From Phoronis australis (Eukaryota; Animalia; Phoronida), in assembly GCA_002633005.1 (NCBI GenBank), contig NMRA01000140.1, forward strand, positions 558,001-622,000: a DNA stretch of 64,000 bases. Reading direction: 5' to 3'. Of the stretch, positions 31,496 through 62,321 are shown one piece after another; the first letter of the stretch is position 1, and each line of letters begins with the position of its first letter. Position numbers and translations under genes: made by a program. A model generated the notes under the pieces. The model made no database searches, had not been told where the DNA came from, and saw nothing but the letters and a program-made list of their open reading frames with translations.

Positions 31496-33155
31496 TACAA
31501 AACAATGTTTAGGTAGGTAACCACTTCTTGTAACAGGTGTTCAATGCCACAGTAATTCAATGGTGAAAAACTCCACACAAAAATTTAACAGGGTTTTCTG
31601 TAGATAAGCTTACGGGCACATATACGGAAAATGAAAAATTTTGAAAATTTTCACGCATTCCACTGATACAAAATAAACGCCTGGGTGTTTAGTCGAAGGG
31701 GGGGGGGCGTGTAAACGGAAAGTCATAGCCTCGGCTGATATGAAAATACCAGCCATTTTTGTGCTAAAACCTCTGTTTTTTAATTTTAAGTTAATAAATA
31801 CATACTGCACCAACACTTTGTTCGTTTATATAAATGATAAATGCTCACAAAACTGAATTTGTGGCTAAAAGTTGATGCTAAGTGGGCTTTTATGAGGACA
31901 TTTCCGAATACAGGCTACATTCTATTTCACACAAAAATTATTGTCAAAATATCAACTTTTCCATAACACAGACCGCTAATGCTCCAATTTTTATTCCATA
32001 AATTTATATTTTACGATAAATGCATAGTGTAAGCCATGTTGATAAGAAAAACAAATTTTTCACAACACTAACTTTTGTTGAGAAACTTGGCGTACTAAAA
32101 TTTCGCCCATACAACACTCTTGTGTGATAAACTGCAAGCATTTATCATACTCATTGCATAAAATAAAATAAAATCAGGCGTAACAATACCTTATACACAT
32201 TAAGTATGAGCAATTCAAAACAAAAAAAACCTGAGACCTAGACATGCAATTTGGTATGCAAGCATTGTGTGTTTTATATTGATGAAGCCGCACATACCAA
32301 TGGAAGGTCACTCATAGAGTAGACAATAACACCCTGGTATTGCGTAGTGCCCTCAGTGATACGGCCCAAGCCAGACTTCATGACGTGGTGGCCATAGAGG
32401 AATTGTTGCTCAGCACTCGGCTTCAACCACACTTTATACTGGAAAAAATGAGCATTGTGGTCACATAGTTTCACATGTTACGTCACATTCACACACTTCT
32501 TCAATAGACGAACAATAGCTTAACTTAAATTCACGTCAAAGTCCCAAGATGCAGGTAAGAAATGATGATGGAACACGATTACTTTTTCATAATGAATTTC
32601 AGAAAATTTTCAAAGTTAAGATTATTATAAATAAGTATGATAAATTTTACTCATATTAGAGCACAATACGGTGAAACATAAAATCTGAACAACACAATTT
32701 TCAAACTGACGACTTTACTTAATTATTTGAAAACTTTATGCAGTGCCGCTGTCATTAACAAACACGAATTTAGAACATTTTTGGCAATATAGCAAGCACT
32801 TCAACATGAAAAAGGAAAAATACAGTTTTGCTCATTACTTTTGTTCAAATTATATGAAATTTTACTGTAAAGTCTATCACTGCAATGGCATCACTGGCAA
32901 GCAAAAGTGGAAAACCAATAGCAAACAAAGATAAGCCACGTTTCTCTACCTTGGCGTAAGGACTTAAGAAATCTAGAGCTGTGATGTGTAGACGGAACTT
33001 CCCTGATTTTGTGAACTTTCCAAAACATGTTCCGAAGCTCAGGAGATTTTCACGTGACACGTGGCAGGCTTTCTTCATCAAGTCCTCACTAAAAAGAAAC
33101 GAGCAAACTGTTAATTTCAATAACTACCGTGTTTTTCAAAACATTCCTTGATGGC
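31496..33155 (+). repeat. Copy 2 of the duplicated segment, starting exactly at the gap
   Basis: Begins tacaaaacaatgtttaggtagg as at 28679 and matches through ...cattccttgatggc; lacks ~230 bp present in copy 1. Confidence 0.95.
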
Positions 33156-39028: not shown

Positions 39029-40820
39029 CAGTCTAATTCTGTCAAACGAGTAGGCTGTTCTGAATTTCCAAGAACGTCCTCCGGTGAGTTTTTTTACCTT
39101 GTAGTGAGCTTGATTATTGACCCTCGTTCTGAATATGATAAAGTTAAAGATCAAGGGCTGACTACTTTTAATGGTTCATATAGAGGGACGAGAGTTAAAG
39201 CAGGCTTGTAACTGGGTTGGGTAAAACCAATTGCTGATGATGTTGATAATGTAGTAGTGCAATCTACACTGGCAGGTGTCAATGCTATGTCCGAGAATGC
39301 TGATTCTTCGTCTGCCAGTCCCGATTCCTCTCAAGGGGGTAGTGCGGGGTTGTCAGCCGATGAGGATGGTTCCACCACTTTACCTCCAAAGCTGCTGTCA
39401 CTTATTGAAAACCTAAGACAGGCTTGTCTTCTAATGAGGCGTCAGTTCTTGAGAATCTCTTGTTAAGAGTATCAGGATGTGTTTGTGGCTGACGATTTAG
39501 ATCTGGGGAACTTTACAGCACTCGAACATGTCGTCGTCACCAGCTCTGAACTTCCTATCAAAAAACAGCTACGAGGCAAACTCGTTTGTCTGTTTTGATT
39601 CGTAAGTCCGATGGTTCGGTGAGTAACTGTATTGACTACAGTGCTCTCAATAAATTACTAAAAGGATGCGTGGCCCCTTCCCTTGATTGATGAGTGTATC
39701 GACCTTCCATCTACTCCCTACCGTCCCTCATCTGTTCAGGTGGCAAAAATTAATCGTATAGTGATGGATGCTGTGTGTTGTTGCATTTCCAATAGTCAGG
39801 ATGACTGGGATCCTTTTCTTGACGCAGATTGCATGTGCTATTATAAGGACTTCAGTTAATAGGCAGACAGGTTTCACTCCCAACATGGTTCTGCTGGGCC
39901 GTGAGATTAATCATCCGTTTACTCTCATGTACCCAGTGGCACGAGGGCAGGACCCTGTTTCCCCTACTGATTTTGTTGAAACGCTTCAAAAGAGAATTTC
40001 TAGTGCGCATGAAGTGGCCAGGAAGACCCTAGTCATTACGTAAGCCCATATGAACCGCGATTACGACCTTGGGGTACATCGTCGTGACGTTGTATATATC
40101 ATTGACATCCCGGTCATTAAAGGCAAATGTAAGAAACTAAGTCCACCTTGGAAAAGTCCTGGCATTGTTATTGATGATCTTACACCCTTTCTTTTCAGGA
40201 TCTGACTTGAGAATCCTGTTTCTACGGTTAATCATTACCGTTTAAAGATTTGTAATGATAAATTGGAAATGTTGCCTAATTGGATGTTAGCTGTGGGTAA
40301 TCCTACCAGTCCCCTTCTTGTTGTTAACGACCTGTACTGTATATGTCGCCACCCGGATGACAGAGGGTTCATGATCCAATGTGATTCGTGCGATGAATGG
40401 TATCATGGTAGCTGTGTCGGAATCAACAGTGAGGTGGCGGTAACCATCGAGAAATATTATTGCCCTCGGTGCAAGCCCACTAGTCGGTCTTATTTATCAT
40501 GATTACTTGTTTTTATTTATAGGTTCTCTTGTCAAGATGTACAGCTAAAAGAAAACCCCGATCTGCCAGTCTTCAAGGGCGATGCTAATGCCCCCCGTCA
40601 GGTAACAGTTGAAGCGGCCGTCGCCGTCGTGCCAGTATCCCAGGGAGGGTATGCCGGTGCCGGCGCCATCTTTAGGTAGTGTACCATTGACTTCTGTGGA
40701 AAGAGAAGGTCCAGTACCTCAGGAACCCTTCCGCATCCTTCTCTTCAGAGGCAAACCTGGACGATTCCATTTTGAATGATCCCCCGTCATCCGACCCTGT
40801 GGCTACAGAGTCTCGACCCT
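39029..40820 (+). mobile_element. Gypsy copy A (decayed): post-protease region, RT N-terminal fragment, integrase C-terminus, PHD finger, start of ORF3
   Basis: EYQDVF...DLGNF, CIDY.ALN, KDAWPLPLIDECID (~39662-39703); TGFTPNMVLLGREI; KLSPPWKSPG; YCICRHPDDRGFMIQCDSCDEWYHGSCV...YYCPRC; FSCQDVQLKENPDLP is homologous to the start of the 47434 ORF. Confidence 0.88.
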
Positions 40821-40871
40821 TGGACAAGGGTGAGTAGCACCGTCGAACCAATAGCCACAATCTACAACATT

Positions 40872-40885
40872 TGGGGTAGTTGCAG
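40872..40885 (+). other. Degenerate primer-binding site, tRNA-Ser-like
   Basis: TGGGGTAGTTGCAG lies two nt after the LTR end and resembles the tRNA-Ser complement TGGCGTAGTCGGCAG. Confidence 0.55.
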
Positions 40886-41157
40886 TCACTGCTTGTGGTG
40901 CTTTCCCCTTGTTTACTTTCACCAGAGGCGTGAAATTTAAAGTTCATAAAGTTAAGTTTCCGTCCTGGTACTACCCCATGGAGGGTGGTAACTGTTTCAG
41001 TTTTTCTTTAGGTGTTTTTGTACGGATGTACATATTTCCTTGTACATATTATCATTTTCTAGTTTCATTATTGTTTTTTTCCAGAAAGTTAATTATATAA
41101 TTTAGTATTTTTCAGTAATTGTCTTAATTCCTCAGTGCCTTTTGAGCACCAATCACC

Positions 41158-42270
41158 ATGGCATCTAAGATCCTAATCAATTCTTGTGATGCTACAACAC
41201 TGTTAGACCTTCCAGGCATGACTACTGATGTTGCTGCTGCAGTTATTGACTTCAGGGCAGTGTCAGCGATTACACTGGAGAATGTTACTAAGATACATTC
41301 CTCTTGGAAGCCGACCAAAATGATGCATAAACACATCGACTTCTCCATCCCATCTGGTCTGCCGGAAGATTTGGCTAAAGTTGCAGAGTTGGTCGACAAT
41401 TATGGTAAGGAAACACCATCGAAAATGGTTTCAGTTCCTGTTTCTTTTCCAAAATTGGCAACTAAATTTACCCCATCCAAGACCAATATTGCTACTGGTG
41501 GTGCTTAAAAAAAGACAACCTCATCTCCACATACTAGCATGTCATTTAAGCCGTCGGGGTCTTCAGCTAATTACCTACAACATGCTCCACGCAACCTAAC
41601 TTTCAGTGGTAAGCTAGGCACCTGGGAAGATTTTTTCTGGAAGTTTGAAAATGTTGCCAAAGATAACTGTTGGCCTAGCCAAAAGTGCCGTACTGAATTA
41701 GGTATGTGCTTAGAAGGAGATGCTTCTCGTTGGTTCGCAAACCGTATCAGAGCTTTAACAGATGCATCTTACAAACAGATCATCAAAGGTATGATATATC
41801 GCTTTGGTGCAGAAATCGAGTGTAACGAAGCACACCAGCTTAGATTTCAGTCAGCCAAACGAACTCCTGATGAGTCACTTGAGCAATGAGCTGACCGCTT
41901 AAACAGTTTATTTTTATTAGCTTTTCCAGATGCTAGGGACACTGACAAAGATCAGGCTGTCCTTCGTTTCTGCTTGGGTTTGAAGGACAGAGATGTTGCT
42001 CAATGGACAATAAATAGTAAACCGGAATCAGCCATGGAGGCTTTGAATGCCACACGATGGTTTTCAACCACCAAAGACCTTATGACACAGTCGAGACCAA
42101 CCAAGACCGTTTCTTTCTGTAGGGAAACCTTTTCAGAGGAAGAGGAGGAAGAAGTTTCGGTTCGTCAGTTAAGTAAGAAGCCCACTCTTAAGTTCATTCC
42201 TCGTGGCACTTTAGAGTCTCGTTAAGATGTCCTTGAGGGTAAGTGCAATGATTTGGATACATCGGTTTCA
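41158..42270 (+). pseudogene. gag of copy B with N-terminal helix-hairpin-helix-like segment and capsid-like region
   Basis: ORFs 41158, 41539 and 41974 are one frame broken by in-frame stops; TFSGK..WEDF..KFE..A....W.......LGMCLEGDA..WF and ESLEQ*ADRL..L...AFP are Gypsy gag-like motifs. Confidence 0.85.
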
Positions 42271-42307
42271 TTAGAACAAGTAGGGAACAAGGCATGGTCG
42301 GTCTCCC

Positions 42308-42830
42308 ATGATTCGTTTTCATGCTGGAGCACCGATGGAGCGAATACATATCAATTTTCTTGGTCCACTACCCTTATCTCCGCGTGGCAATCAACATTTG
42401 TTGATGATAGTTGATCAATTTGCTAAGTGGGTGGAATGTATTCCCCTACCTTCTCAAACTGCCGAAGTTAAAGCTACCGCAGCAGTAAATGATTTTTTCG
42501 TGCATTTTGGTTATCCTTTCCAAATTTTCTCTGATCAAGGGAGAAATTTCGAAAGCAATTTATTCCGTTCTGAGAGTGAGCTTTTGCACATCCATAAGGC
42601 ATGTGCAACTCCGTATAGACCCTCTGCAAATGGTCAAGTTGAGCGTTACAATAGAACCCTTATGGATGCTGTAAGATGCTACGTGAATAACTTTCAGACG
42701 GATTGGGATCTATACATTCCTCAAATGGCTAGCGTGATTCATTCGACATACAGTTTTAACACCGAATATGATGATGTTGGGTCATGAGGTCACTCAGCCA
42801 GTAGATCTCATGGTTCCTCTACCGTCCGGT
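42308..42830 (+). pseudogene. Integrase catalytic core fragment of copy B
   Basis: GAPMERIHINFLGPLP (first catalytic D>N), FSDQGRNFES, TPYRPSANGQVERYNRTL. Confidence 0.92.
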
Positions 42831-43212
42831 GTCTTATTTATCGAGGCTGTTAGTCCACTAACTGTCATTTAGGTAGGGAGGGTGGAGTAGTTATATTTTT
42901 TTTAGTTTTCTTTTTCACATTCACTCCTCATTAGTTTTTTTTCAATGAGTTTGTTAAGTCAATTTTAGGGAGGAAAGGAGTAGGTACTTGTTGTTGTGTC
43001 TTAATGTCGTCTGTCCTTGTTCGTCTGAGTGTTTATGGTGAACCGGATGTAGTTCATAGTTTATATCACGTGAATGGGGAAATGCTGGACCTGCTCGTGT
43101 CGTCCTTCCTGAGTGAAGGACGTGTATTCAGTGCCTATTTTAGTGTAAAGACAAGTCAAGAAATGGACATGGGTGAGTAGCACCGTCGAACCAATAGCCA
43201 CTAATTACAACA

Positions 43213-43500: not shown

Positions 43501-43680
43501 TAGCCTCGGGCCGGACTCCCGTCCAGATCACCCGGTAATTCTCCACGAAGAGCCGGAGAGTGTTTCAATTGTGGGGAGACTGGTCATTTTAAATATTCGT
43601 GCCCCAATAAACCATCGGCCAATGTCACATTACCCTCAACGTCTCCAGATTGTTTAAACTGGAACGGACTGAAGGACTAG
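43501..43680 (+). pseudogene. gag C-terminus of copy C with CCHC zinc knuckle
   Basis: GECFNCGETGHFKYSCP (C-x2-C-x4-H-x4-C from 43561); stop TAG at 43678-43680. Confidence 0.88.
43653..43659 (+). other. -1 programmed ribosomal frameshift heptamer T TTA AAC (gag to pol)
   Basis: Heptamer is in the correct gag phase and the -1 frame is the protease ORF; a potential stem GG.CTGA...TCAG.CC follows. Confidence 0.8.
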
Positions 43681-46600
43681 ATTCCCAATCAGGCCTGCCC
43701 AAAGACTATTCAACTCTGATTGGTTTGGTGGGAGGGATCAAAAAGCAATTAAAACGTGCAAAAAAATCTAAGAAAACGATTCATTCCACTGGTGTGGAGA
43801 CTGATTCTGAAGATTCTTTCTCAGTAGCAGATTCCGACAGTGATTCTAATCCAGGTTCTCTTGCTAGTAAGGATACGTTGACTGTAGATCCACCTATCAA
43901 GTCAAATCTAGATCGAGCGACTCTGGACGTAGTACGGACCGACTCTGATTCAATAAAATCGTCGCCGGAGATAGTAAACATATGTAAACTATCTTCAGGT
44001 CGTACATATTATATTCCCATAGAGTTGAAGGGTTTGAGGATAAATAGTATCCTGGATAGTGGTGCCGACAGTACTGTAATTTCTACCAGGGTATCTAAAT
44101 TTCTCTCGGGTGTCCAAGCCGTGCACGATGTAAAGGTGACAACGGCCGCAGAAGGTCTGGCTCTTGGGGGGTTCAGGACCAATGACATTCCCATTATTAT
44201 TAATTCCAAAACATATCGAACCTCAGTGGTAGTTTCAGATATTCAGGACAATTGCCTCTTGGGGTTAGATATCATGAAACAATTGAGATGTGTTCTGAAC
44301 ATGAAAGAGGATAAACTGATTATTGAGGGGAAAACATTTCCAATGGAATACGGTATCCCATCCAGACATCTTCCTCCCGTGGTAGTGAACTCAAATGTTT
44401 TAATTCCTGCCAATACGGTGAAGAGGTTAAGTGGGATTGAATTTCCAAAGATTTCCCCCATGGTTATGTTTGATCCGTCTCAATCTTTAGATCCACTTAT
44501 TTCGATCCCCCGCTCAATACATGACCCCCAATCCTGTTCTTCCCTTTTTGTTTTCAATTCATCGGAACATGGGGTAAGATTAACAGGAGGGACTATCTTA
44601 GGTGTAGTGGAACCCGTGGAATCTGAAGGGGTAAAGGATACTCAGGTTTGGGAACAGTGCTCAGTTAAGGTAGCTAAGGCAAAGGAAACTCCTGGGGGTG
44701 TTGAGACACTGTCGGGGAGATTACCAGGGCGAACTCCTGGGAATGTTAATGCGCTGTCGGGAGATTTACCAGAAAAGCGTTCTTGCTCGTTTTCGGGAGT
44801 TTGGCCTGAGATTGAAACCCAGAAAGTGTGCCCTGTTCCAATAGAAAGTAAAATTTCAGGGTAGGACGGTGGGTCCGGAAGGGTTGGAGATGGGAAATGA
44901 CAACATTAAGAAAGTCCAAGAATGGCCTTTTCCCCACAGTAAGAAACAGTGTAAAAGTTTCTTGAGTTTCGCAAATTACCATAGGCTATTCATCAAAGAT
45001 TTTGCAAAATTAGCTGTACCTCTTTATGAGATTACAGGGTCGAAGAAAACCTTTCAGTGGGACGATGCACAACAGAATTCTTTCGATCAATTAAAGGTAG
45101 CTCTAACATCACCACCTGTTTTAGCCTTACCTAACAAAAATGACAAATTTATTCTTGATTATGACACCTCTGATAAGGCTATTGGCTGTTGTCTTTCCCA
45201 AGTTTAGAACAGGGTGGAGCGAGTTATCTCGTAGTCCAGCTTCGCTTTAGTGGACGAACAAAACCGTTATTGTACTACTCGAAAGGAGCTGTTGGCTGTT
45301 GTACGATTTACACACCAGTTCAGACATTACCTCTTGGGCAGGAAACTTAAAGTACGGACAGATCACAGTAGTTTGAGATGGCTGTTAAACTTTAAATCTC
45401 CTTCGGGACAATTAGTTCGTTAGATATTACAGTTACAGCAGTTTTCGGGTATGGATATAATATACCGTCCACGAGTTAAACATATCAATGCTGATGCTCT
45501 GTCACGTATTCCTTCATCCTCCTGCCCCGCTTACAAGCTAGGGGTAGAACTCAAAGACCTTCCTTGTGGCAGTTGTCCCACTTGCTGCAAATCTCATGAG
45601 GAATGGTATAATTTCGTACAGGAAGTTGACGACACTATTCCTCTTGCACAACGCCCCCGGGCAGCTAAGGTTGACAAAAGTACCAGTACCCGTGCGCGAT
45701 CTGTATATGTGTCTGATGCGTACAAAGACTCTCTGTTGGATAGTCAAAACGTCCCAGAAGAGTTTATCCCTGACAACTTAGGAGAGGAGGGGTTGGCATT
45801 AACTATACGTAATCTCGAGTTGACGGATGTCCCTTGTATGGATGACTGTTTTCTAATCTCCATAGCTAGGGATGATCGAAACCCTTGTTTTGCGAGAGCA
45901 TTGTTGATAGAGGACGAAACAGACTTTGACCGCAAGTAGAGGGAGGACACAAATCTGACTGTCATATTTGACTGGTTAGATAATGGTGTTGAACCTTTAC
46001 AATTCCGCTTATTTATCTCCAGCGCTACGGCCAAAAATTATTGGCTTAATAGGGAGCGGTTTGTTGTGTCGAATAATCTATTATATTGGAAGGCTCCAGA
46101 TGAGGAAGATACTCTAAAATTAGTAGTGCCCGAGTCCTGCAAGTCAGATATTATAAAGCATTGTCATGACTTACCCTCCGCATGTCACTAGGGAATTGAC
46201 CGTACCAAAGCGAAGTTGAAAGATAAGTATTATTGGCGTGGTATGGCCGCGAGTGTAAAATCTTATATTGAAACACGTGCTGGCTGTAATTTAAATAAGC
46301 AAGGTAGAGGTAAGTTTCCCTTAACTACATTCCATGCAGGGGTGCCCATGGAACGCGTCCATTTAGATTTCCTGGGTCCACTCCCTGTATCAGATCAGAG
46401 CAACGAATATATCCTCATGATGGTAGACCAGTTCGTCAAGTGGGTGGAATGTGTAGCCCTCCCGTCGCAGACGGCAGAGGTCACGGCGAACGCTGCAGTG
46501 GACCAGTTCTTTAGTAGATTTGGGTTCCCATTGCAGGTGTTTACCAATCAGGGATGAAATTTTGAAAGTCATTTGTTCTGTCATATTTGTTCCCTTTTAA

Positions 46601-47411
46601 AAATCCAGAAAACAAGAACGACTGCGTATGGGCCTTCTTCTAGCGGACAATGTGAGCGATTCAATCGTACCCTGATGGATGCAATAGTTGTTATGTCATT
46701 CGTTTCCAAACTGATTGGGATAGGTATTTACCCCAAATTGCGGGTGCTATCCGGTCTTGTGTTAATCGTCATACTGGCTTTACAGCTAATAAAATGATGC
46801 TGGGTCGGGAAATAATTCAGCCAGTAGACCTCATGTATCCACCGCCCTTACAGGATGCTGAGGACCCCATAGGGTATGTAAACCGGCTCAGTAAAGCGAT
46901 TACTCAAACTCACGAGATAGCTAGAGGAACATTGCAGACTACCCAAGCTGTTATGAAACGCGATTATGATGCGTCTATGGTCAAACGTTCATATAGTGTT
47001 GGAGATTTAGTCTATGTCCTTGATTCAGCTAGCGTTAAGGGGAAGTGTAAAAAACTATTACCCCCTTGGAAAGGGCCAGCCATTGTTCTCGAGGTCATTA
47101 CTCCCTATCTATTTCGAATTAGACACGGGAATTTTGTGTCGGTAGTCAATCATGACCGTTTGAAACTCTGTAAAGATAGGTTTCAAGACCTACCTATCTA
47201 GCTTAAGAGAATGATCCAGGTAAATTCCACAGTGAACCAGGATAGTCTAGCAGAAGACACCGAAGTATACTGTTTTTGTAGGAGACCTGATCATGGCGGG
47301 TTCATGATTGCTTGTGACGTATGTGATGAGTGGTATCATGGGGAATGTGTAAGCATTACCACTGATGACGCACTGCACACTGACCGGTACATCTGTCCTA
47401 GTTGTGAATAA
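43653..47411 (+). pseudogene. pol of copy C: aspartic protease, RT with core deleted, RNase H, integrase, PHD finger
   Basis: ILDSGADSTVIS (~44055); RT resumes only at VLARFREFGLRLKPRKC (~44780); RNase H YCTTRKELLAVV, VRTDHSSL, NADALSR; integrase HLDFLGPLP, QCERFNRTL, WKGP; PHD 47268-47408. In-frame stops at 44842, 45205, 45232, 45421, 45937, 46189, 46555 and 47199, plus a frameshift near 46690. Confidence 0.93.
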
Positions 47412-47433
47412 CATTGGCTTTGCAATATTTCAG

Positions 47434-49491
47434 ATGTTTCGATGTACAGATGTGAGGTTAAAGACTAATCCGGACTTACCTTGCATTACCGACGTCCCAA
47501 GTGAGCGGGAGGACTCTACGCAGCCACCGCCTCAACCAAGGGAGGAAGATCAATCCCCGGTGCAAGAGGTGTCCGTGATAGCAGCAAATACGGGGGAATC
47601 AGACATCGACGAGTCTGTCTTAGACGACGACCCGGTCGTAATGGTCTCACCCCCACGGCCTATTAATGTAAATGTGCCCCTGTCAACCCCCGCAGATTTT
47701 CTGACCAGTCCTTCGTCCCCTATGATGGTAGATTCTGCGGTAGTGTCAACAGGTTCCGCAACTACGCCGCTGGCTTCGCTTGGTGAGTCTATTTGGGCCC
47801 TTCCCGAATACTCCCAAGGAGTGCAGATGGCAGAAGCCTTGTTGCAACCCACTGATCAATATCAGTGTCCCCTGTGCCCCTTTACCGTTTCTCTCGGTGA
47901 AGATGAACTGTTGTGTAAACATATTTTCACATGTCATCTGCCACCCTTGTTTTCCACTAACCAGGCTGACGTGGTTGCCAGCCCTCAGCTTCATCGAGAG
48001 AGATACGACTCGTTAGCCTATCTTTTTTCATTGCTGGAGGGACGTAGCATGAAAGACTCGCTAGATCTTGTAGACAGGTGTAACCTGGTATGCCGAGGCT
48101 TGAGCCAGCTGCCACGGGTACTCCCCCTGGATCAAATGGCGATGTCCGTAATGTCTACTACATTTGGCTGGGACAGGGTGCCGAGTTTCACGTTAACACC
48201 TAGACTCAACTCGCCAGCCGCCTGCTTCCACTGGTATGTGATCACTCTTCTGCTCCAAAAATTACCAGAGAGTGACCGTGCCCGATGGTTTGTCAGTGCA
48301 CATAATGTGAGGCTCCCTCAGTCCTTCTTGGACTCCTCGTCCGGAGAGGTCGGGCCAACGTCCTTTATAACCCCCAGGCCTCAGACTTCTACTTCAGCCC
48401 CTTCACCCCCTAAACGACCACGGACGTATGCCCAGGTTGCTTCCTGTCCTGAGGCTCAGTCTGCACCGCTCCCTCCTGTACCATCCAAATCCCCAGTGGA
48501 GCGTAAACAGGATCGTCCAAAGCGGTCGGCGCCGGCAACCACCACCTCGGCGAAACGATCCGCTAAACTACCATCCTTGTACGGTCCACAGTCGACCGCT
48601 AATCTGCAGCCTGCTGCATCCGCCCCAAAGCCAGAGGCAGTCGATTCGCATTTCCACCTAGATCGGCTGACCTTCGCGTGCCAACGGTTTTCCCCCGAAT
48701 TGGCCGGCCGGCTACTTACCATCCCTGAGATCACGAATATGACGGCCATGCTCCCTTGCCCCTCAAAAAATCCCGTCCATTTAACAGGGGGCATAGCGGT
48801 ATTTTGTGATCCGATCCACTATAAGTTTGTGGAAAAATCTACTGAGGCGTTCCCTTCGGGTTGGAAGGCTGCCATAGGCATCCATCCGAAAAACGCCAAG
48901 TCGTACAATCCGGCCATGGAGAAGGAGATTTTCAGGCTCCTCCGGTTGCCCAACGTTGTTGCACTAGGTGAGTTGGGATTAGAAGAAGGCCACGGTAGCG
49001 CTGAAGTACAGCAGCGAGTAGTTGTGTCGCTGGTGCGCGGTCTTGCCCGCTTCCAGACGGTTCACGGCTCTCGTGTGCTTGTATTGCACCTTCGCGCCCG
49101 GGAGTCCACTTCGCCCTTTCACTCTGGTCATCAGTACATGAGACGGTTGCTGAGTGACGTCTTGCCCAGAGCCCAACCAATCCACCTCCATTGTTTTTCT
49201 AGTAATCCCCAGGAGGTGCGATCATGGATGAAGGCTTTCCCAAATGCCTATTTCGGCTTTGCTGCCACTGCTCGTCACTTTTCCTCTCCCCAAGCTAAAG
49301 CTTTGGCAGCCGTGCCCCTTAATCGGCTTCTTTTGGAGACCGATTCCCCCCATTTAGCGACGTCCTCTCGACCTATGGCCCCATATTTCATTGGGGAAGT
49401 GGCCTGGAAAATAGCACGCCTGCGTCACTGTAATGCTGACTATTTGTTGGAGCAAGCGGCCAAGAACGCACGTGTTTTATACCGACTGTAA
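47434..49491 (+). CDS. Retrotransposon ORF3: C2H2-like zinc finger, Pro/Ser-rich linker and TatD-family metal-dependent nuclease (685 aa from ATG 47434)
   Basis: TatD motifs VDSHFHL, IGIHP, ALGELGL, VLHLR, HLHCFS, YFGF and LLLETDSP in correct order (48634-49491); CPLC-x14-H-x4-H at 47866-47937; no introns, no stops; ATG directly follows a tttcag acceptor-like site. Confidence 0.92.
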   Translation: MFRCTDVRLKTNPDLPCITDVPSEREDSTQPPPQPREEDQSPVQEVSVIAANTGESDIDESVLDDDPVVMVSPPRPINVNVPLSTPADFLTSPSSPMMVDSAVVSTGSATTPLASLGESIWALPEYSQGVQMAEALLQPTDQYQCPLCPFTVSLGEDELLCKHIFTCHLPPLFSTNQADVVASPQLHRERYDSLAYLFSLLEGRSMKDSLDLVDRCNLVCRGLSQLPRVLPLDQMAMSVMSTTFGWDRVPSFTLTPRLNSPAACFHWYVITLLLQKLPESDRARWFVSAHNVRLPQSFLDSSSGEVGPTSFITPRPQTSTSAPSPPKRPRTYAQVASCPEAQSAPLPPVPSKSPVERKQDRPKRSAPATTTSAKRSAKLPSLYGPQSTANLQPAASAPKPEAVDSHFHLDRLTFACQRFSPELAGRLLTIPEITNMTAMLPCPSKNPVHLTGGIAVFCDPIHYKFVEKSTEAFPSGWKAAIGIHPKNAKSYNPAMEKEIFRLLRLPNVVALGELGLEEGHGSAEVQQRVVVSLVRGLARFQTVHGSRVLVLHLRARESTSPFHSGHQYMRRLLSDVLPRAQPIHLHCFSSNPQEVRSWMKAFPNAYFGFAATARHFSSPQAKALAAVPLNRLLLETDSPHLATSSRPMAPYFIGEVAWKIARLRHCNADYLLEQAAKNARVLYRL

Positions 49492-49817: not shown

Positions 49818-49831
49818 AGGGAGGAGGGGAA
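49818..49831 (+). other. Polypurine tract of copy C
   Basis: tttt-AGGGAGGAGGGGAA immediately before TGTTGTAAT. Confidence 0.8.
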
Positions 49832-50074
49832 TGTTGTAATCGGCAACATCATTGGCCCTTTGTTTTTCCTGTGGCGTCTTGTGATTGGTCTGTTTTTGTG
49901 TGTTCCCCCGTATGTCTCTTATATAAGTCGTTGGCGCCACTGTCGGACGGGTTTTTTCAAGAACCGGCAAAACGAGTCATCCATGGTTGCTCCACTTGGC
50001 GTCAACTGACTGGCTTATATCTTCATAAAAGTAAGTACTCTTGTGCCTAACTAGTGAACTGTAGGAATACAACA
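49832..50074 (+). mobile_element. 3' LTR of copy C with CCAAT and TATA boxes
   Basis: Begins TGTTGTA; ATTGG at 49851 and 49884; TATATAAG at 49920-49927; a TACAACA inverse end at 50068-50074. The end is uncertain because the last ~28 nt recur at 50315-50347. Confidence 0.65.
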
Positions 50075-50399
50075 CTACTTTAGTTTTTGACAATATTGAA
50101 CAAGACAACTAGTTCTTGTCTGTCAATCATCTAAGTTCTTAACAGGTCCTCCTGGAGGCAATTTGTTTGCAAGTATTGGATTTTATATTTTAACTTATTA
50201 AAAGTAATTAAAAAATTATGGGTCATGGGTTGGAGAAATAAATGAAATATATGGGCGGTGGGTACGAAATAAAAGTGCCTTCCCCCCTCCCATACAGATT
50301 TTGCTGGAACAGCCCTAACTAAGTAGTGAACCTGTAGGAATACAACAGGCCGAACCTGTTTGGCCGTGTCGGCAGTAGCCGACAAATAATACTATAATA

Positions 50400-50900
50400 C
50401 AGACTTCTGGACTAAAATGGCCGCAATATGCATCCACATTTGTACACATGGGCGCTTAAAAATCATAAGAAAGGGCAGGACTCACCAACAGCTAAACAAC
50501 AAAACCATCACATGTGCGCCGGAAGTAGTTTGATAACGCAAGCGACATCTTATGGCAACAGGTGCTTGTGGTCCACTTTATCCATTGGACTGTTTTTTCA
50601 GTTTCACTTTATCATTTTAACAATACTGATTACTGTTTGATCTTATATTATTTATGAATGTCATACTTGACAATTATTTTAAGACTTAATATTTTATCGC
50701 AAACATGTCTACGAGTATGAGCATGGCTAGTTTTCTCCCCTGTAAAACGTCACTTCCTTTTTGAAGTTGTTGTCATAGTGTATTGTCAACAACGGTGTTG
50801 AACGAAGAACGGTTCATTCAATGCAATGCCAGACCTCGAGATTTAAACCAAAGGCAATCATCATTATGACGTGTTACGAATTTTGCTCAATCTTTAAGTC
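50400..50900 (+). promoter_or_regulatory. Probable promoter of the SVBP-motif gene
   Basis: YY1-like AAAATGGCCGC (50414), ETS CCGGAAGT (50519), RFX half-site ATGGCAAC (~50552) and CGTCACTTCCT (50748), directly upstream of the first coding exon. Confidence 0.55.
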
Positions 50901-50966
50901 TCAGTTACGTCGAAAGAATGCAAGAATCACCCAAACGTGACAAACTAATATTATGACAAAGTCACT

Positions 50967-51561
50967 ATGAAGCACCTGTGTATTTCTAAAGCTGCTGATG
51001 TCGGGCTTCTGTCGGACGCTGTGAGACAGAGACTGGCTGCCAGAGCAGTCACTGTTACACATCCTCTTAGTTTGTTCGATTTTGGAATAGATGGTGGTAT
51101 TGCATATGGCCGGTTGCTGTCGCCATGTGTTGTAACTCCGGCGGTGTGTGCAAGTGGTCTTCCTAAAATCTCGGACAAAATTCAGTTGAATTCTTTTAAA
51201 ATGGAGAATCGAGTTGGGTCAGGTAGGACACTGCAGCGACCTGTTGGATCAGCAAGGACAATGCACCAACGACACACTCAAGGTTCTAGTCCACATAACC
51301 ACTCAACAAGAACTTTAGCTAAGAACGAGTTCAAGACAATTAACGAGATTCGAAATCTTCTTGCGGGGCACAATAAATTAGCTAGAACTGGTGTTGGCTC
51401 AAGCAAAAACGATGACAGTCAGTACACTGACAATCAGAAAATATCTTTACCATCGGACAATGTGTATAGCTTTAGCCTTCGATCTAATGACCAGACACTA
51501 CAGTCTACTATAGACCTGGATGGCTTAAAGAAGACTTTGACGGAGGTCTGTGAGGAATCAG
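50967..51561 (+). CDS. SVBP-motif protein exon 1 (true start may be ATG 51201)
   Basis: Open frame ending TCA G|gtatga, phase 1, matching the acceptor at 52702. Confidence 0.7.
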
Positions 51562-52701
51562 GTATGAACTTTTTTCCATTTTCTTATGCATGGAGTACAG
51601 TATTACTGGTAATATGCTATACCCAGGTTTACAGTATTATTACATAATATGGTACGTAAAGCGAGGGGTGAACTAGACTGAAATATTTCTGTGCCGGGAC
51701 TTCGTAACCCCGGCAAACAGAAGTTGATCCAAAAGAAAACACGGCATGCACCTCATACTTTGTCTATTTTAGATTCACGCAAGAATTGCTGTTATCATCA
51801 ATTCTTATTATCATGATCACTGATCTAAATTCTTTTTGTGTGGAGCACGACAATTACTACATTGGCCATGTCTTTACAGCGCTACCTCATTGACTGAAAT
51901 TAAATTACAATACTATTTACTGAAACTCAGGAACTAGATCCTATAGTTGAAACTAGTGTTTTTTACCATTTGGATTCTGAATTTGAATTTGTTGTGAAAA
52001 ACTATATTAGGTTGAATTTCCAAAATGTATATGTTACACATTATAGCCCATTGATGTTATTGTATTAGGTTAAGTAGACCAGTTTTTGTTTGGGATGGAT
52101 GTGTTCACCTTCATGTGTTCATCATGGTAGATAATTGGCATTAGAGTTTTGATGTGGGACAAAAGACGATGTGAGCTAGACTAGATTGATAAGTGAATTT
52201 GGAATCTACTGTTGTCTGGAGTTGAAACTGAACTTATGAGAAATATGTTATGACAGATTTGATTGTGACCTCATATCTTCCCAATTAGTCTGTAAATTGA
52301 ATCACTGGCCTGTGACTTAGTAATGAGTTCATGTAGATATATCTGTGTGTCGTTTCTAGGAAAACTCTGTAATTAAAAACATAAATTTTTGTTGATTGGA
52401 TTATAATATGTAAATAACGTATAGTACCTTGTAGCATATTTAAAGCACTGTGACATAATTTTGAGCACCTTGTTACTACTAGGTTTCACCATCACTTTTC
52501 TACCTTGAAAGTGTGATGTTGATTGGTAGTCTAGTCATGAAAATTCAACATCTGTGCGTACAGCTATTTATAGCTATTAAATTAGATTTAGTTTCACTAC
52601 AGCCCTCAAATGAAAATGATGGATGTTTTCTCAGCCACTCTGTTCAATGAAACTGTCAGCTCAGGTCTACAGATCTGATGAATATTTCTCTCTTTCTTCA
52701 G

Positions 52702-53166
52702 GAGTTGCTGACGAGACTGGAAGCCTGTCTAGGCCACACACCAGGAGAAGTCGTAAAAAGTCATCAAAAAGTCGCAGGACTGCAAAGGAAAAAATGCATC
52801 CAAAAAAATTTAAAGATGTTAAACCGAATGACATAAAATCAGGAACAGCAATGTCAGGATTTATGATAATTAACAGTGCTATGCCAACTGTGCCTGCCAA
52901 AAGTTCTCCAAACAACAAAGGTGCTAAGACTAAACCGATCACGATTTCTCAGCCAAACACTCCTAGAACTTCAACTATTACTGGCAATCCTTTGAAAAGT
53001 CCTTCCAGGTCTGGTTTGCGTTCTTCTCAAGAGGAAGCGAAGTTAAACACGACTAGTCCCATCAGAAGTAAGATCACCAAGGTATATTGTTCAGAGAAGC
53101 TGTCAGGGAGTGTTGTGTCTGATGGCATATTGATACCGTGTGCTCCGCCTGTCACACCTACATCAG
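52702..53166 (+). CDS. SVBP-motif protein exon 2 (basic, Ser/Pro-rich)
   Basis: ttctctctttcttcag| acceptor, CAG|gtaaag donor, phase 1-1, open. Confidence 0.8.
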
Positions 53167-53216
53167 GTAAAGAGATGCCTTGAGGTTCTCATGTTTTACT
53201 TTGCAATTTGACCTGG

Positions 53217-53470
53217 TTAGCTGGCCAAAAAAATCGAATTGGACAATCCCTCATGAAATTGGTCTCATATTATTTGTTACTATGGCAATAATCCATTTTT
53301 AGTGTTGTCAACTACCCAATTCACATCATAGTGGATGCACACGTGCCATTTTCGAATTAGCTACTGTAGGATTGTTGGCTTCAACGTTTTAGTTAATGAC
53401 GGAAAAAGAATATGTTAACGGCAAGGAAAAATGAGACTAAGAAGGCCCAATTCGATTTTTGTTGTAGCCA
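53217..53470. mobile_element. Intronic MITE-like element
   Basis: Inverted repeats aaaaatcgaattgg (~53229-53242) and ccaattcgattttt (53447-53460) with imperfect outward extension. Confidence 0.5.
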
Positions 53471-54407
53471 TGAGAAACAGGGCGATAGTATTAATTGTGC
53501 AGGTCTGCCATACTAGGAATGCTCATGAATTCATTACCTTAAAGTCAGCCCTTCATTAGCAATGAATTTTCTTTTTGGAAAATTTATTAATTTGCTTAAT
53601 TATTCTAAAAATTTATATAGTGGTCTGCACTATGACTCAGTTTGAAAGTTGTGTTCACTATGCTTTTAGGTAGTTAAATTGATGCAGATAGGCATTCTTT
53701 TCTTTAAAAAGAAATAGCGGCTGCCTACATGTACATGTTCAATTTCCTGCATGGTTTCACTCACAAGTGCCTGACTGCTCCGTGTCACAATATTGCTGGT
53801 CTCAGCTGATTTTTTTTAAAACGCGACCTACTAAATTAGTGCCTCACTGTTGCAGCAATTTTCATAACACCGAATGACCAGAACCAACATGAATTTTCTT
53901 TTTGAAGTTTAATTGGTCTGGTCTAGTTTAATTTCATTCATTTTGAAAATTTGCTATAGCACTCAATGTACTACTAGTAGCCGACATGATGTGTGAATCT
54001 GTTGGCATATTTTGCCACAAGCTTGTGGTCAAGCTAATGCCCATTATGGACTGACCACTTGAAATGCAACCTGTCATTGGATTAAAAAAATTCTGTGAAC
54101 TCCCCCAAGTACGTCTGTAAGGGAACGATAATTTTTGAAATGGGCATGTGAGCCTTTTGGATATTAAATTTAATGACAATAAGTGATCGACTAACTCTGT
54201 TTTGCTTAGAGGAAACGAGGGTTTATAACCACTTAAAAATATTTAGCGAGACTACATTGGTCTGGTTAAAACTCCCGCAGTCATGTTCAAATCATGTTGT
54301 CACACTTGATGGTTCAACTTTGTTATGCGTCTAAATAGTGCATGAACAATCATCCATTTTGCACCTGCCATTACGTGTAATGGCTTCACGATGCTGCTCT
54401 ATTTTAG

Positions 54408-54601
54408 ATATGCTTCGGAAGTACGAGTACGTTCCAAGCATGGGCGATGTAAAAGCACAGCGCCTATTACGGATTAAACTCCAGGCAATTGAAAAGAACT
54501 TTAAAAAGAAGCAGGATAAGATATTAAAGGATCGTGCAAAACAAGAGGAGCAGTTAGCAAAGGAGCGTGAAAAAATGAAGCGACATCGACAGCGTCAAGA
54601 G
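54408..54601 (+). CDS. SVBP-motif protein exon 3 (coiled coil)
   Basis: attttag| acceptor (phase 1), GAG|gtatgc donor (phase 0); ends KMKRHRQRQE. Confidence 0.85.
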
Positions 54602-55089
54602 GTATGCAATCCTAACACCTAAAATTTCAACTTTACAGTATTTGGCAGGAACCATCCCATTATTTACTAATATTAGACAACAATAGGTTAATTGACTGAT
54701 TAATGTGTGTGGTAAAATCTCATTAATTTTGGTCAAATTTACCCGTTTCTCATTTTCCAAAGACTATTAGCGTTGCGAATGCACTTAATTTTTCTAAACT
54801 GGGAAGAATCAAGTGCTCAGCATTACTGGAAACAACGTAGGTCAACAAGTTGCTTCATTGTGGTGGGATATTTTATGTGCCAAACACAACAATCTCAAGC
54901 ATTCACTTCCAGTACCAATGACTAAATTTCAAGTTTTTCCAAGCTCAGTTAACCATAAGCACTTCTCGTCTAGCTGGGTTCAATAAAAAAGTCGCGACCT
55001 TTATTGCAGTGGTGCAAGTCCTCAATCGAATTAGTTTCTCTCATGAAACACGGGTTTAGCGGCTTTCATTGGTTTTTACTCTATTCCAG

Positions 55090-55176
55090 ATCTACGCTCT
55101 TAATGCTGTGATGACCAAGTTAGAGAATGATCGGTTCATTTCTTATTGCAAAAGTAAAGGCATTCCTGTCAGCTGA
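55090..55176 (+). CDS. SVBP-motif protein last exon, not in the ORF track
   Basis: ttccag|ATC...TGA encodes IYALNAVMTKLENDRFISYCKSKGIPVS; joined to exon 3 it gives RQRQEIYALNAVMTKLE, versus human SVBP [17 protein letters not shown]. Confidence 0.88.
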   Translation: MYALNAVMTKLENDRFISYCKSKGIPVS

Positions 55177-56245
55177 TTCTACCTGTGCATCCAGGAGAGG
55201 AATTTTACCTTATCAGTATTATGTCAATCATGCATAAATGTTGTGACATAGTTGATTGAACCAATTTCGGTCATCCACATGTTCAATATTTGTTAAACAT
55301 GCGATGAATAAGGGTACGAGATAAGCGAAGTAGTTCATTGATACAAACTGATACAGTTAAAACTCATTACAGTGTACCTTGTTTTAAATTTTACATAAAT
55401 TGTAGGCAGCTTACACAAGTTTACTCTGGTTACAAGTTATCGTTTAACACACAAATGTTGAAGGTCTATTAGTGTATGACTAAACTGAAAATTTACAGTA
55501 ATTGAGATCGAAATTGTTGAGTTATTTTTATTAATTTATGCATAATTGTATAACATGCTCAGATATTTACATTTTTATACTCTTGCAGTAAAGAATAATT
55601 CTTGAAAGCGCTTTACATTGATAAGAATTTAAATGTAACTTTTCCTTAAAAGAAATCATGCTGTAGGATATTAGATGGATAGTTGTGATGTTGCTCATTT
55701 TTTTTTCTTTGCATATACCCGGACAGCTGATCCAGTGTCAACAATTACACTATCGTGTGATACTCAACAGATGTCAGTGTTTTAATGGCTCCTACACTCG
55801 ACATTTGTAATTTCACTCTTTTGCGTGGAAATGTTGCTTACATGCAAGCAAACAGTAAAACTTGATCCAAATGGAAGGATTTTATACAAGTTATGCGAAT
55901 TACGGCTTATCTGACGCGCTGAATGCACAAACTAGACCAACTGATCTTTGTTGGACTTGAGATGACTAAAAACCCGATTTAACTATTGTACGGTTCTTCT
56001 GGAAATGAAATAAAACAACTGATGTGCATGAAATATATTAAACATAAATGCCTTAAGTGCCCTATTTTATAGGACAAATATATGCATGAACTATTATTTA
56101 AATGAGATTTACACTTATTAAGCAACTTGTTTTTAAAAAGTTTGCAAATGTATTCCTTCCCAAAACAGCATTATAGCAAATTTTTGTACCAGAGCTAACA
56201 AACAAGTGCATTGCAGAATCTGGATTTCTTATTTTACAAGAAACG

Positions 56246-57845: not shown

Positions 57846-58162
57846 TTAATGTGGAGAAGGCATACACTTCAATCGCTCAAATGTTGCCTTTTCTAAATAC
57901 TCTCTGTGGTCAGGATGAGCTATTTTGATAAGTTCGTACGCTCGTTGTCTCAGATTCTTGCCAAAGAGGTATGCAATACCATATTCTGTTACAATGTAGT
58001 GCACATGAGCTCTTGTTGTGACAACACCGCCCCCCTCTTTGATGTACGGCACAATCTTGGTGTCGCCATTCTTCGTCGTGGAAGGCATGGCAAGGATGGG
58101 CTTTCCTAACCCGTCTGAGCTTTGAGCTGCACCGCGTAGGAAATCCACTTGACCTCCGACCC
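57846..58162 (-). CDS. Family I CoA-transferase / acetyl-CoA hydrolase, last exon
   Basis: GVGGQVDFLRGA...VVTTRAHVHYIVTEYGIAYLFGKNLRQRAYELIKIAHPDHRE; ttcttag| acceptor, TAA stop. Confidence 0.95.
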
Positions 58163-59142
58163 CTAAGAATACAAACAATGCTGACTGATGCTCCAATTGA
58201 AAAGTGATGGAAATAATTCATGAAAAATTAGTATGCAAATTGTCCATGAAGACCTTATCCAAAACAAAGATTGTACTCCCTGAAATAATACTCACTGAAA
58301 TAATTATCAATGTTTAGTAACTTTCTGATAGCGATAGCTTGAACTACAGATTAAATACACAAAATCATAGAAGACTTAACCAGAAATTTAAATAATACAA
58401 AATTGTCCCAAAAATTGAAATGAGATGCATTGTTCAGCTCAAGTACTGTATAATGTTAAACCGTCATCAGCGAAAAAGTTTTGCCTGCAACAAATGCCAT
58501 GTGTAACAATTACTAGGTTCAAATATGTCAAAATTACTTGCAACTTTATATTTCTTCACAAGGTTATGATATTGCTAAATGTTAGTCATCTCATGACATG
58601 ATGCAAGAGTTCAAGTTTGAATGCGTTTTTGCACAAAATACACAGAACACGTGTATCAATCCTGTGCAAAAATTTGTTTAAGCTTTTCTTGATGTCTCCC
58701 AGCTATGAAACCAAAAAAGAAGCCTTCCTGACTGCATTCTTCAGCGTACCGTTACTTGAAAGTCTCACAATTACACTCCTGTGGAGGCACTGAGCACTCA
58801 AGATTCTCATCAACCAACTTTGAACTCTATGGCTGTAGACAGTTTACTAACAAACTTAAGGTGACACATTATATCTTTCAGTTCGTGGCCCCTTTTAATC
58901 AAATGTCATACACATGGTCTTAGCTAAGACAGTCATATCTTGAATTTTTATTGGTAGACAAACCATTAACATGGTTTAAAGAAGTTGAACCTGAATGTGA
59001 GCAGCAATCACGCCGACACAGTAACAAGTTTAGCTCTTTCAAAAACTGTAACTTCGCTTTCGCAATAGAGCAGTACGTGTGATTGTCTTTTCAAGACAAG
59101 CGGACGTATGACCTTTGATAGACCAGGCCCATGAACACTGAC

Positions 59143-59280
59143 CTGAGTAGAGCCTGGTGCCGATGGAGTCAGACACAACCTGACCCGTAAGGTCAACCTC
59201 GATACAGGAGTTGATGGCAGTTACCTTGGGGTTCTGCATTATGATGGGAATACTGTTGACAAAGCCTATGTCATTCATCA
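59143..59280 (-). CDS. CoA-transferase exon
   Basis: NPKVTAINSCIEVDLTGQVVSDSIGTRLYSG; tttcag| and |gtcagt, phase 1-1. Confidence 0.95.
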
Positions 59281-60125
59281 CTGAAACAACAAGATTAAGA
59301 CTCACTACATTGTAATACAGTGAGCAACATTGCGTAACAGTCCATTCATCAAGCTGTAATCAATGCAAGACAACAACAATCTTCTTAAAAATAAAAATAA
59401 TCAACAAAGGTGCTGAGAAAGTCCTAAATCAACTGCTGCCAGTGACTCCACTATAACAGCTTGCGTAATTTTTCTCCAAGTTCTGTTATAAGGCCTGTGA
59501 AATAACAAGCAGACGAGCCAAAATGACAACAGAAAGATGGGAAGACAACTACGCAGGTGCGCCTACAAATTTTTTGTGAGTGCACAATAAATGTAAACAA
59601 AACTCCACATAAGATTTTCTTTACTTAGTTTGAAACGGACAAAAACATGATGGGAAAGTAGTTAGAAAATCATTTACTATAAAGTATAGCAGCATCACGA
59701 ACCAAAAACAGAAAATCAATCAAGGAATAACATGACATATGCCTATTAAGCTGAATCATTCATTTTTTACGCTAATATCAAGTCTGTTTTTAATGATGTT
59801 TTTAGCTTTATTTCTCAAAAAACAGACAGTATACAGTAAAATTTCCAAAAGCCGGATCCAACTAGACCAAGAGACTTTGTCCAAAGAAAGGCAAAATTAG
59901 ACTTGTTGTATAAAGGGTTCAGCACAAGAAATAAACACAACCTTGCTTGCCTACATTGAGCCAAGATTCGACTTTCGTCATCCAGACTTATGCTAGGCTT
60001 ACTGTTACTGCAATAACTTTTCTCAATTACAAAACTTAACGTGACTTGTTATAACGACGACTGTTTTAGAAAAACTTAGTACGAATAAAGAGTGCTTTCG
60101 CGAGGACCTCACACAAATACCTTAC

Positions 60126-60262
60126 CAATGAATGGATTGTTATCCATAAAGTCGTAAAGTTTCTTGGTTCCAACCGCAAATCCACCAACAATCTTGCCTG
60201 TGTGGATGGTCTTCTTAGCGTTGGTGATGACCCCTTTGTCCACCAAGTCAATAATCCCATCG
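60126..60262 (-). CDS. CoA-transferase exon
   Basis: DGIIDLVDKGVITNAKKTIHTGKIVGGFAVGTKKLYDFMDNNPFI; acacag| and |gtaag, phase 2-1. Confidence 0.93.
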
Positions 60263-61059
60263 CTGTGTAGTGATAGTGAATACGTACAGTCACAAAAATA
60301 CGTTATGTATGAGCTGTTATTAACGTCTCATTATTGACTTGATATTTTGAGTACTACTATTAAAATTACTGATCAAATTTTAATACGCTATATATATATA
60401 TCATGCATTTAATTTTAAATATTTTATATACTACGGTGTACTTCCATGACAAACCCACTGGAGCTCCCCCTAGGTGCAGTGAGCTGTGACTAGCTACTGA
60501 TAGCACTGAGGCCATCTCTTTACAGTCAGTCTTTTAAGAGTTAGCTAGCTGAATCAGGTCACTGAGTCTTGGACATTTCAAGGTAACAATTAGTGTCACC
60601 AGGCAATGCACGAGCTTGCTATTTCACTTACACTAATTGGCCATTGTGTTAGTTAATGCATACATACAATGTTTTGTCACTCCAATGACAGGATATTAAG
60701 CAATTTAAAACAAGAGCAACACAAAGCTGTGAAATGCACCCATGGTAACAAAAACCTATTTCCTTAATTTCATGAAAATCCAGCACGAAAATCCAAAGAT
60801 ACAGAGGCAAACAAAAAGTCATAAACATTATTGCCACTAGGAGACACGAGCAGCGATAGCTGGAGCTTCAGGAAAAAAGTCGTCACCTGTAGTTAAGTTT
60901 ATAGAAATACAATTGCCAAAATTGTCAAAGATGCTGTAAAGGTTTAAAGAGAGACAGCCGTAGATACAAAAAACAAAATTACAACCAGAGAGTGCCATTG
61001 CATTTGGGTTGATTTGAAAATCAACATTAGATGTGATCATCTCAACAGGAACACATCTT

Positions 61060-62242: not shown

Positions 62243-62321
62243 CTAAACATCTCCGAGTGAATGCCCAGGTCTCTGTGGCTCCAAAGACTGGCAAGGACAG
62301 TGTCTGGGATGGTACCAATAC
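62243..62321 (-). CDS. CoA-transferase exon carrying the catalytic Glu motif
   Basis: GIGTIPDTVLASLWSHRDLGIHSEMFS; tgccag| and |gtaac, phase 1-2. Confidence 0.93.

Follow-up and report, generated by a model that had tools for sequence, protein, structure and literature searches.

To our knowledge, insertion-site choice by LTR elements is understood in few cases, and the elements that favour active chromatin borrow host readers. In the RAG2 PHD, MLV integrase-BET and HIV integrase-LEDGF systems, a histone-mark reader brings a DDE recombinase or integrase to active chromatin, and this reader is a partner protein or a host cofactor. Chromoviruses carry a histone-mark reader at the integrase end of a Ty3/Gypsy domain order, where it is a proposed insertion guide (accessible portions of PMC6673714 and PMC12440569), and in these features they resemble the elements described here. 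A further likeness is offered by CopiaMBD of arthropods, in which a host-type chromatin reader was captured by LTR retrotransposons and an insertion bias is proposed; the chromovirus analogy for captured readers is already drawn there (available excerpts of PMC6673714). PHD fingers are reported in CR1, REM1, Chlamys and Rehavkus, and those of CR1 LINEs, REM1 and Chlamys belong to published PHD accessory domains of retroelements, which are called widespread (excerpts of PMC6673714 and PMC8557442). Ginger1-9_HM of Hydra has a PHD finger C-terminal to a Gypsy-type integrase (partial text of PMC2836005), and the LTR retrotransposons Juno and Vesta of bdelloid rotifers have a nuclease gene in the env position (partial text of PMC5408684).

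We compared with these systems a stretch of 64,000 nt of Phoronis australis DNA (the window), in which copy B of an LTR retrotransposon bears a PHD finger behind its integrase and lies beside two further copies, A and C, and a host gene. The features are as follows.

39374..40820, + strand: copy A, another family, with an RT fragment, the integrase C-terminal part, a PHD finger at 40335-40472 and the start of an ORF3-like stretch (Pfam, sequence comparison)
40821..43212, + strand: copy C, a third family, with an LTR end, a primer-binding-like site, gag (41158-42111), an integrase core fragment (42275-42830) and a second LTR end (43164-43212)
41158..41346, + strand: helix-hairpin-helix (HHH_3, DNA-binding-type) gag start (Pfam), found also in the relatives L001, L005, L009, L028, L040 and L071
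43510..43659, + strand: end of copy B gag, with CCHC knuckle (tblastn with the gag of L024 and L010)
43611..44864, + strand: start of copy B pol, with aspartyl protease (Pfam Asp_protease, E 5e-6), behind which most of RT is missing
44773..46686, + strand: pol remnant, with the end of RT, RNase H, and integrase zinc finger and core (Pfam RT_RNaseH, Integrase_H2C2, rve); seven stops, and a frameshift at its end
46689..47198, + strand: integrase C-terminal part (end of core, WKGP motif, tail; tblastn with the intact pol P0007, 51% identity)
47199..47201, + strand: in-frame stop between integrase and finger of copy B (sequence); copy A and 38 of 50 related loci read through here
47202..47267, + strand: variable linker from integrase tail to finger (pN 0.54 against 0.30-0.32 on both sides, 30 loci)
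47268..47408, + strand: PHD finger (Cys4-His-Cys3) of copy B (Pfam PF00628, E 1.4e-12)
47353..49491, + strand: ORF3, uninterrupted, with a C-terminal TatD DNase domain at 48640-49482 (Pfam PF01026, E 8e-29; PDB TatD, E 1e-10)
49818..49831, + strand: polypurine tract (sequence; the same tract stands ahead of the LTR in relatives)
49832..50074, + strand: 3' LTR with TGTTGTA...TACAACA ends and 7-bp inverted termini (sequence)
50075..50347, no strand assigned: high-copy repeat fragment (50075-50318), then the terminal 28 nt of the LTR once more (blastn of 50047-50074 against 50319-50347, 93%)
50803..51561, + strand: first exon of a spliced host gene, apparent 5' end 50803 (RNA reads, GT..AG joints)

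The sequence-only reading of this DNA had placed the finger in frame with the integrase past a single TAG and had ascribed the same finger to a second copy, A. The frame relation holds in copy B, where the integrase part (46689-47198), the stop and the finger frame (47202-47408, ended by the stop at 47409-47411) follow one another, and the finger scores 47.8 bits against a PF00628 cut-off of 24 and retains all eight zinc ligands. Copy A likewise carries a finger (PF00628, E 8e-13), and its DNA is stop-free from 40206 to 40499, the integrase tail running into the finger; as a fellow carrier it stands, but it is a separate family and not a duplicate (49% protein identity over 230 residues). There is indeed one stop between integrase and finger, but this is far from the only lesion, since pol of copy B has eight stops, one frameshift and a deletion of most of RT, with P0007 residues 290-541 finding no match by tblastn. 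Copy B is dead and yields no fused protein, and the argument for a fusion rests on relatives that read through. A TTTAAAC heptamer at 43653, in the gag-pol overlap of copy B, is a likely frameshift site by its sequence, and no 5' LTR of copy B lies within the 64-kb window. In copy C, gag has a helix-hairpin-helix start (HHH_3, E 1e-3), the integrase core matches rve (E 6e-9), and the LTR ends form a 49-nt repeat (92%); its DNA is 66% identical to that of copy B, and aligned DNA among the three copies is 66-77% identical. Copies A, B and C represent three families of the same clade, in one orientation within 11 kb, and copies A and C may be nested in earlier copies. Elsewhere in the window, the N gap at 30539-31495 is surrounded by a duplicated stretch of about 2.6-2.8 kb (28679-33140), which may be an overlap in the assembly, and exons of a host acetyl-CoA hydrolase/transferase gene occupy 57849-63886 on the - strand (Pfam, E 1e-36).

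A search with the integrase tail plus finger as query gave 175 matches among 499 candidates, of which 120 were listed. Among these listed matches, PF00628 occurred together with integrase domains in 80 of 120, and 42 of these 80 PHD-bearing proteins also span RT and RNase H; the finger ends at most 28 residues from the C-terminus in 74 of 77 measured. At the DNA level, 50 of 80 metagenome loci carry the finger. The sequence-only reading had named intact copies with a stop between integrase and finger as a sign against its proposal; the frame from tail to finger is open in 38 of these 50 loci, the remainder being broken in the finger or ahead of it, and the genome-collection loci have a fused ORF in 13 of 17. 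Named relatives come from bivalves, gastropods and sea urchins. Several 90% clusters, on long contigs, have 30-151 members and point to recent multi-copy families. The PHD fusion is a family trait and not an accident. The long loci of relatives are mostly collapsed one-LTR circles, and none of the loci retains both ends together with the host flanks in which a target-site duplication of 4-6 bp would be read. None of 26 pattern matches in viral contigs was a relative. The representative of one cluster (P0077, 34 members) lacks the last two zinc ligands of the finger. Some of the element proteins (P0071, P0086) are publicly annotated under the host names 'COMPASS component SPP1' or 'BPTF', so that host gene counts are inflated. 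Sixteen of the 17 matches in the prokaryote genome collection (L081-L095 and L097) belong to this animal retrotransposon and most likely entered the bacterial or archaeal-collection bins as contaminating host DNA; the seventeenth, L096 (9278-10903), is a CFP1-like gene with PHD and CXXC, and its 2.8-Mb contig bears the title of a bacterial bin and is probably eukaryotic.

The element class follows the Ty3/Gypsy pattern. The pol order is protease-RT-RNase H-integrase in the intact relatives P0007, P0026, P0047, L082 and L084 and is the same in the remnants of the window; circular contigs of relatives run from polypurine tract through LTR to primer-binding-like site, with LTRs of about 190-340 nt, and the LTR ends are TG...CA, as in Ty3/Gypsy. 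Gag matches PNMA or Retrotrans_gag in six of the eight scanned by Pfam and has a CCHC-type knuckle in seven; its start matches HHH_3 in six, two of them above the Pfam cut-off. Pfam found no chromodomain in the element proteins, which have the PHD instead. Where 2 kb or more of DNA is available downstream, pol is followed by a TatD ORF in 22 of 24 loci with a PHD and in 12 of 13 without one, and the metal-binding His/His/Glu/His/His/Glu/Asp columns of TatD are invariant in all 16 aligned. Since TatD occurs on PHD-bearing and PHD-less branches, it would predate the finger in the lineage; it is a clade marker and no evidence on targeting. A search with full-length ORF3 gave two matches among 7992 scored candidates, and an Atlas search for TatD relatives returned sub-threshold leads only (0.76 and 0.75). 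Three other assignments were considered and rejected: Troyka and Kuafuorterviruses, defined by CG...CG termini and the RT motif [ILV]ADD (accessible parts of PMC12440569 and PMC11673190), are excluded by TG...CA termini and the RT motif FLDD; Errantivirus is excluded because the third ORF is TatD and not env in 14 of 14 loci scanned and in the window; and a Ginger1 DNA transposon is excluded by the RT, RNase H and LTRs of the element.

ORF3 of copy B is stop-free over 685 codons, against a pol with eight stops, a frameshift and a deletion (p about 0.02-0.04 by near-stop codon count). In three RNA runs of the same species label (X1, X2 and X3, about 18-19% of each used), sense depth in X2 and X3 was mostly 5-10 for ORF3, against 0-3 for integrase and finger, and the reads differ from the window at fixed sites; this ORF3-only RNA comes from another copy or allele. 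Splice-donor-like GTAAG or GTGAG sites stand shortly ahead of the primer-binding site in the LTRs of L009, L020, L024, L028, L068, L083, L084 and L089 and at 50032-50040 in the window, a placement that suggests an env-style spliced ORF3 message; no splice joint from an LTR donor to ORF3 appeared at the reporting threshold in the three runs.

To assess constraint, pN was calculated over all pairs of 30 uninterrupted loci and was 0.30 for the finger, 0.32 for the integrase C-terminal part and 0.54 for the linker, whose length in relatives is 17-40 residues; pS in the same comparison was saturated (0.78-0.89). In the unsaturated pair L014/L019, the finger had synonymous changes at 10 of 24 sites and non-synonymous changes at 2 of 114. 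The finger is under purifying selection, with a constraint equal to that on the integrase. Trees were built with FastTree and midpoint-rooted without an outgroup, and PHD and PHD-less labels were assigned from Pfam and tblastn. The integrase tree excluded linker and finger and comprised 179 rows, in which proteins and loci are partly redundant; six truncated loci and short-match rows were left out, the copies of the window among them. All 118 PHD rows fell on one branch (support 0.998), which they share with eight rows that are truncated or ambiguous and with L074, the one PHD-less locus there, for which the match ends ahead of the tail. In the RT/RNase H tree (65 rows), a single branch (support 0.984) unites all 42 PHD rows and includes no PHD-less one. 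The finger has a single origin within the TatD-carrying clade, presumably by gain and not by loss, as read from trees without an outgroup.

Among the matches listed, a basic tail of the R..P.YL.DY type ends 27 of 40 PHD-less relatives and none of the 80 PHD-bearing proteins, and the finger occupies the place of this short basic tail of the sister elements. We take the tail of the PHD-less sisters (C-termini of P0090-P0121) to resemble nucleosome-binding arginine-anchor motifs. That finger and basic tail are mutually exclusive at one position suggests a targeting or chromatin-contact slot, and since the PHD-less sisters are numerous and intact, the finger is dispensable for transposition.

By what we take to be the cage numbering of solved PHD proteins, the predicted cage residues of the copy B finger are Tyr 47268, Met 47304 and Trp 47331, and the H3R2-pocket column is Asp 47316. 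We assume the cage of an H3K4me3 reader to consist of a Tyr preceding Cys1, a Met (in BPTF a Tyr) preceding Cys3 and a Trp preceding the His ligand, together with an acid at the R2 pocket. In a set of 38 fingers (the two of the window plus 36 fetched loci, tblastn matches without a stop), every one has the eight zinc ligands, the Met and the Trp, the residue before Cys1 is Tyr or Phe in 35, and the R2-pocket column is Asp or Glu in 35; in the alignments, these cage columns are identical to those of solved reader chains and conserved family-wide. Compared with solved structures, the copy B finger alone ranked BPTF, Cfp1, DIDO1, PHF8 and PHF2 at the top, and the profile of the 38 fingers gave PHF2, Cfp1, DIDO1, PHF8 and BPTF (E 7e-20 to 2e-17), whereas no ING finger passed 1e-6 against that profile. 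The predicted model of the isolated finger (pLDDT 93.6) matched crystal structures of BPTF, DIDO, PHF2 and PHF8 by Foldseek with TM 0.84-0.91, and many of the matched structures were solved with H3K4me3 according to their PDB titles. Loop length equals that of CFP1/Spp1 and DIDO and is one residue shorter than in BPTF and PHF2, and among rows in which a host domain is recognised, the CFP1/Spp1-like P0370 and P0401 score best against the element profile (36 of 150 matches annotated); a domain of 50 residues is too short to fix the donor host gene. The sequence-only reading had matched the cage to PHF2/PHF8, DIDO1, BPTF and ING types: the reader class stands by sequence and fold, but ING lies far lower, and the nearest by spacing are CFP1/Spp1 or DIDO. 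Judged by sequence and predicted fold, the finger belongs to the H3K4me3-reader class of CFP1/Spp1, DIDO, PHF2/8 and BPTF.

The fourth cage position is less uniform, being Asp in 43 and Trp or Tyr in 25 of 79 fingers, a set picked by a pattern requiring Trp, so that Trp conservation is taken from the 38-finger set; this variation may mean that specificity differs between families. Asp at this position may shift preference towards me2, as judged from the PDB title of a BPTF Y17E mutant; Cfp1 shares this Asp in the alignment, and Drosophila Cfp1 was solved with H3K4me3 (PDB title). PHF2, the closest solved finger, was also solved with a non-histone peptide, VRK1 (PDB title). The CFP1 finger prefers H3K4me3, with a Kd of 1.3 μM against 9.1, 64 and 373 μM (accessible text of PMC5603731). 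By homology, the element finger probably reads H3K4me3, or me2/me3, through a Tyr-Met-Trp cage like that of CFP1/Spp1.

With regard to insertion, the RNA runs place a host gene close to copy B. Sense coverage starts in the bin 50704-50874, sense reads are zero in 50362-50703, and in X1 eight molecules end at 50803 (depth beside it 34). Runs X1 and X2 show GT..AG joints of this gene to 52.7, 54.4 and 55.1 kb, and in X3 the gene is silent; a Pfam scan of one exon of the gene (50803-55200) gave no match. The 3' LTR end of copy B lies 729 nt upstream of the apparent start, or 456 nt if the LTR duplicate at 50319-50347 is the true border, and copies A and C lie 7-11 kb from it. Promoter-type motifs beside copy B numbered three, a count reached by 3 of 107 background tiles, and six other LTR-host junctions, with 30-1000 nt of unannotated flank, had at most one promoter-type motif in five and speak neither for nor against promoter proximity. 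The position of copy B, as one locus considered post hoc beside a 5' end taken from ordinary RNA-seq, fits promoter-proximal insertion. The intervening repeat fragment (50075-50318) is itself transcribed, with read depth above 100 on both strands and loose ends at both borders, and low antisense coverage over the element cluster was observed in X1 and X2 only.

We propose that in intact relatives the finger, fused to the integrase end of Pol, would bind methylated H3K4 as predicted, would by analogy with chromoviruses tether the integration complex to promoter nucleosomes, and would in this way bias new insertions towards active promoters. By that analogy, we regard the chances that H3K4 binding by the finger steers integration towards active promoters as evenly balanced. 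Somewhat more tentatively, an old and successful Gypsy lineage of molluscs and echinoderms may have swapped its basic tail for a CFP1-type H3K4me3 reader and may insert beside active promoters without a host cofactor, the PHD-less TatD sisters of related hosts serving as an inbuilt control. Surviving old copies reflect selection besides targeting.

Among the alternatives, the one that survives best holds that the finger reads methylated H3K4 for general chromatin capture, or at non-promoter H3K4-methyl domains such as broad germ-line domains, the element's own LTRs or small-RNA clusters, with a weak promoter bias. Homology to H3K4me3 readers serves this account equally, three families in one orientation within 11 kb fit insertion into earlier copies as well as promoter targeting, and promoter insertions should be costly, yet families reach 151 members per 90% cluster. 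We nevertheless consider it unlikely, as the outermost copy abuts a host transcription start and H3K4me3 marks mainly promoters in the animals studied. It is improbable that the finger serves the integrase as a protein adaptor by binding H3K4me2, or a host or element protein that mimics the histone tail: the 43 of 79 fingers with Asp as fourth cage residue would suit such a ligand, as would the PHF2 structure with a VRK1 peptide and that of BPTF Y17E with H3K4me2 (PDB titles), but Tyr/Phe, Met, Trp and the R2-pocket acid are all conserved, and the same column is Asp in Drosophila Cfp1, which was solved with H3K4me3. Slightly less probable again is a role apart from integration, in which the finger is released by the protease or acts on the chromatin of the element's own promoter (expression, silencing resistance). 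An analogous alternative has been raised for the captured MBD (available part of PMC6673714), and the variable, poorly conserved linker agrees with it; against this, the finger sits at the targeting-domain position of chromoviruses, replacing a conserved integrase tail, and the linker columns show no conserved cleavage-like motif by eye. The stop at 47199 in copy B could be read to mean that the finger stands next to the integrase by chance, as an exon captured from the host or as an independent small ORF with a genuine stop in front of it. This reading is refuted by copy A, 38 of 50 loci and 80 database proteins among the matches listed, in all of which the junction is open, and also by purifying selection and the single clade.

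Against the literature, the reader-tipped integrase is a real and conserved design, and the clade that bears it was not found described. A search of the full-text literature, covering few subscription journals and with Repbase outside it, gave no description of any clade of animal Gypsy elements that has a PHD fused to the integrase or TatD as ORF3. The accessible portions of a mollusc survey (PMC6238403) and an errantivirus survey (PMC13524379) do not contain the term 'PHD', nor does the available main text of PMC5890265; the accessible parts of the Troyka and Kuafuorterviruses papers mention neither an integrase PHD nor a TatD ORF3, and those of PMC3286476 and bioRxiv 10.1101/447870 have no bearing on a PHD-bearing Gypsy clade. 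Three motifs were absent from five supplementary files of PMC6238403, and the PHD clade may be one of the MolGy mollusc Gypsy clades of that survey. Because PHD-bearing and PHD-less TatD sisters share the rest of their layout, their insertion maps are comparable in existing bivalve and urchin assemblies, and if the proposed targeting is true, the elements would be a source of promoter-proximal variation in shellfish.

The differences from the known systems are as follows. CopiaMBD is a Copia element whose reader recognises methylated DNA with demonstrated binding (accessible text of PMC6673714), whereas ours is a Gypsy element with a predicted histone-mark reader. Ginger1-9_HM is a DNA transposon with terminal inverted repeats and no RT, its finger stands behind a Ulp1 domain, and it is one of 16 families in the table concerned (partial text of PMC2836005). 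The fingers of CR1 LINEs, REM1 and Chlamys apparently belong to other element classes or other finger positions, as far as the available portions of their sources go. The nuclease of Juno and Vesta is a DEDDy exonuclease and not of the TatD fold, and no chromodomain was found in these elements, with no integrase PHD mentioned in the accessible part of PMC5408684. The fingers of CFP1/Spp1, DIDO, PHF2/PHF8 and BPTF share fold and cage columns with the element finger and differ in being parts of host chromatin proteins. In contrast to the RAG2, MLV-BET and HIV-LEDGF tethers, the reader is here encoded within the integrase itself. Compared by architecture, chromoviruses combine a chromodomain with heterochromatin, whereas the present elements combine a PHD finger and a predicted active mark with a TatD third gene and a helix-hairpin-helix Gag. 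If true, an integrase with its own H3K4me3 reader would be a new solution to site choice and the active-chromatin mirror of chromoviruses.
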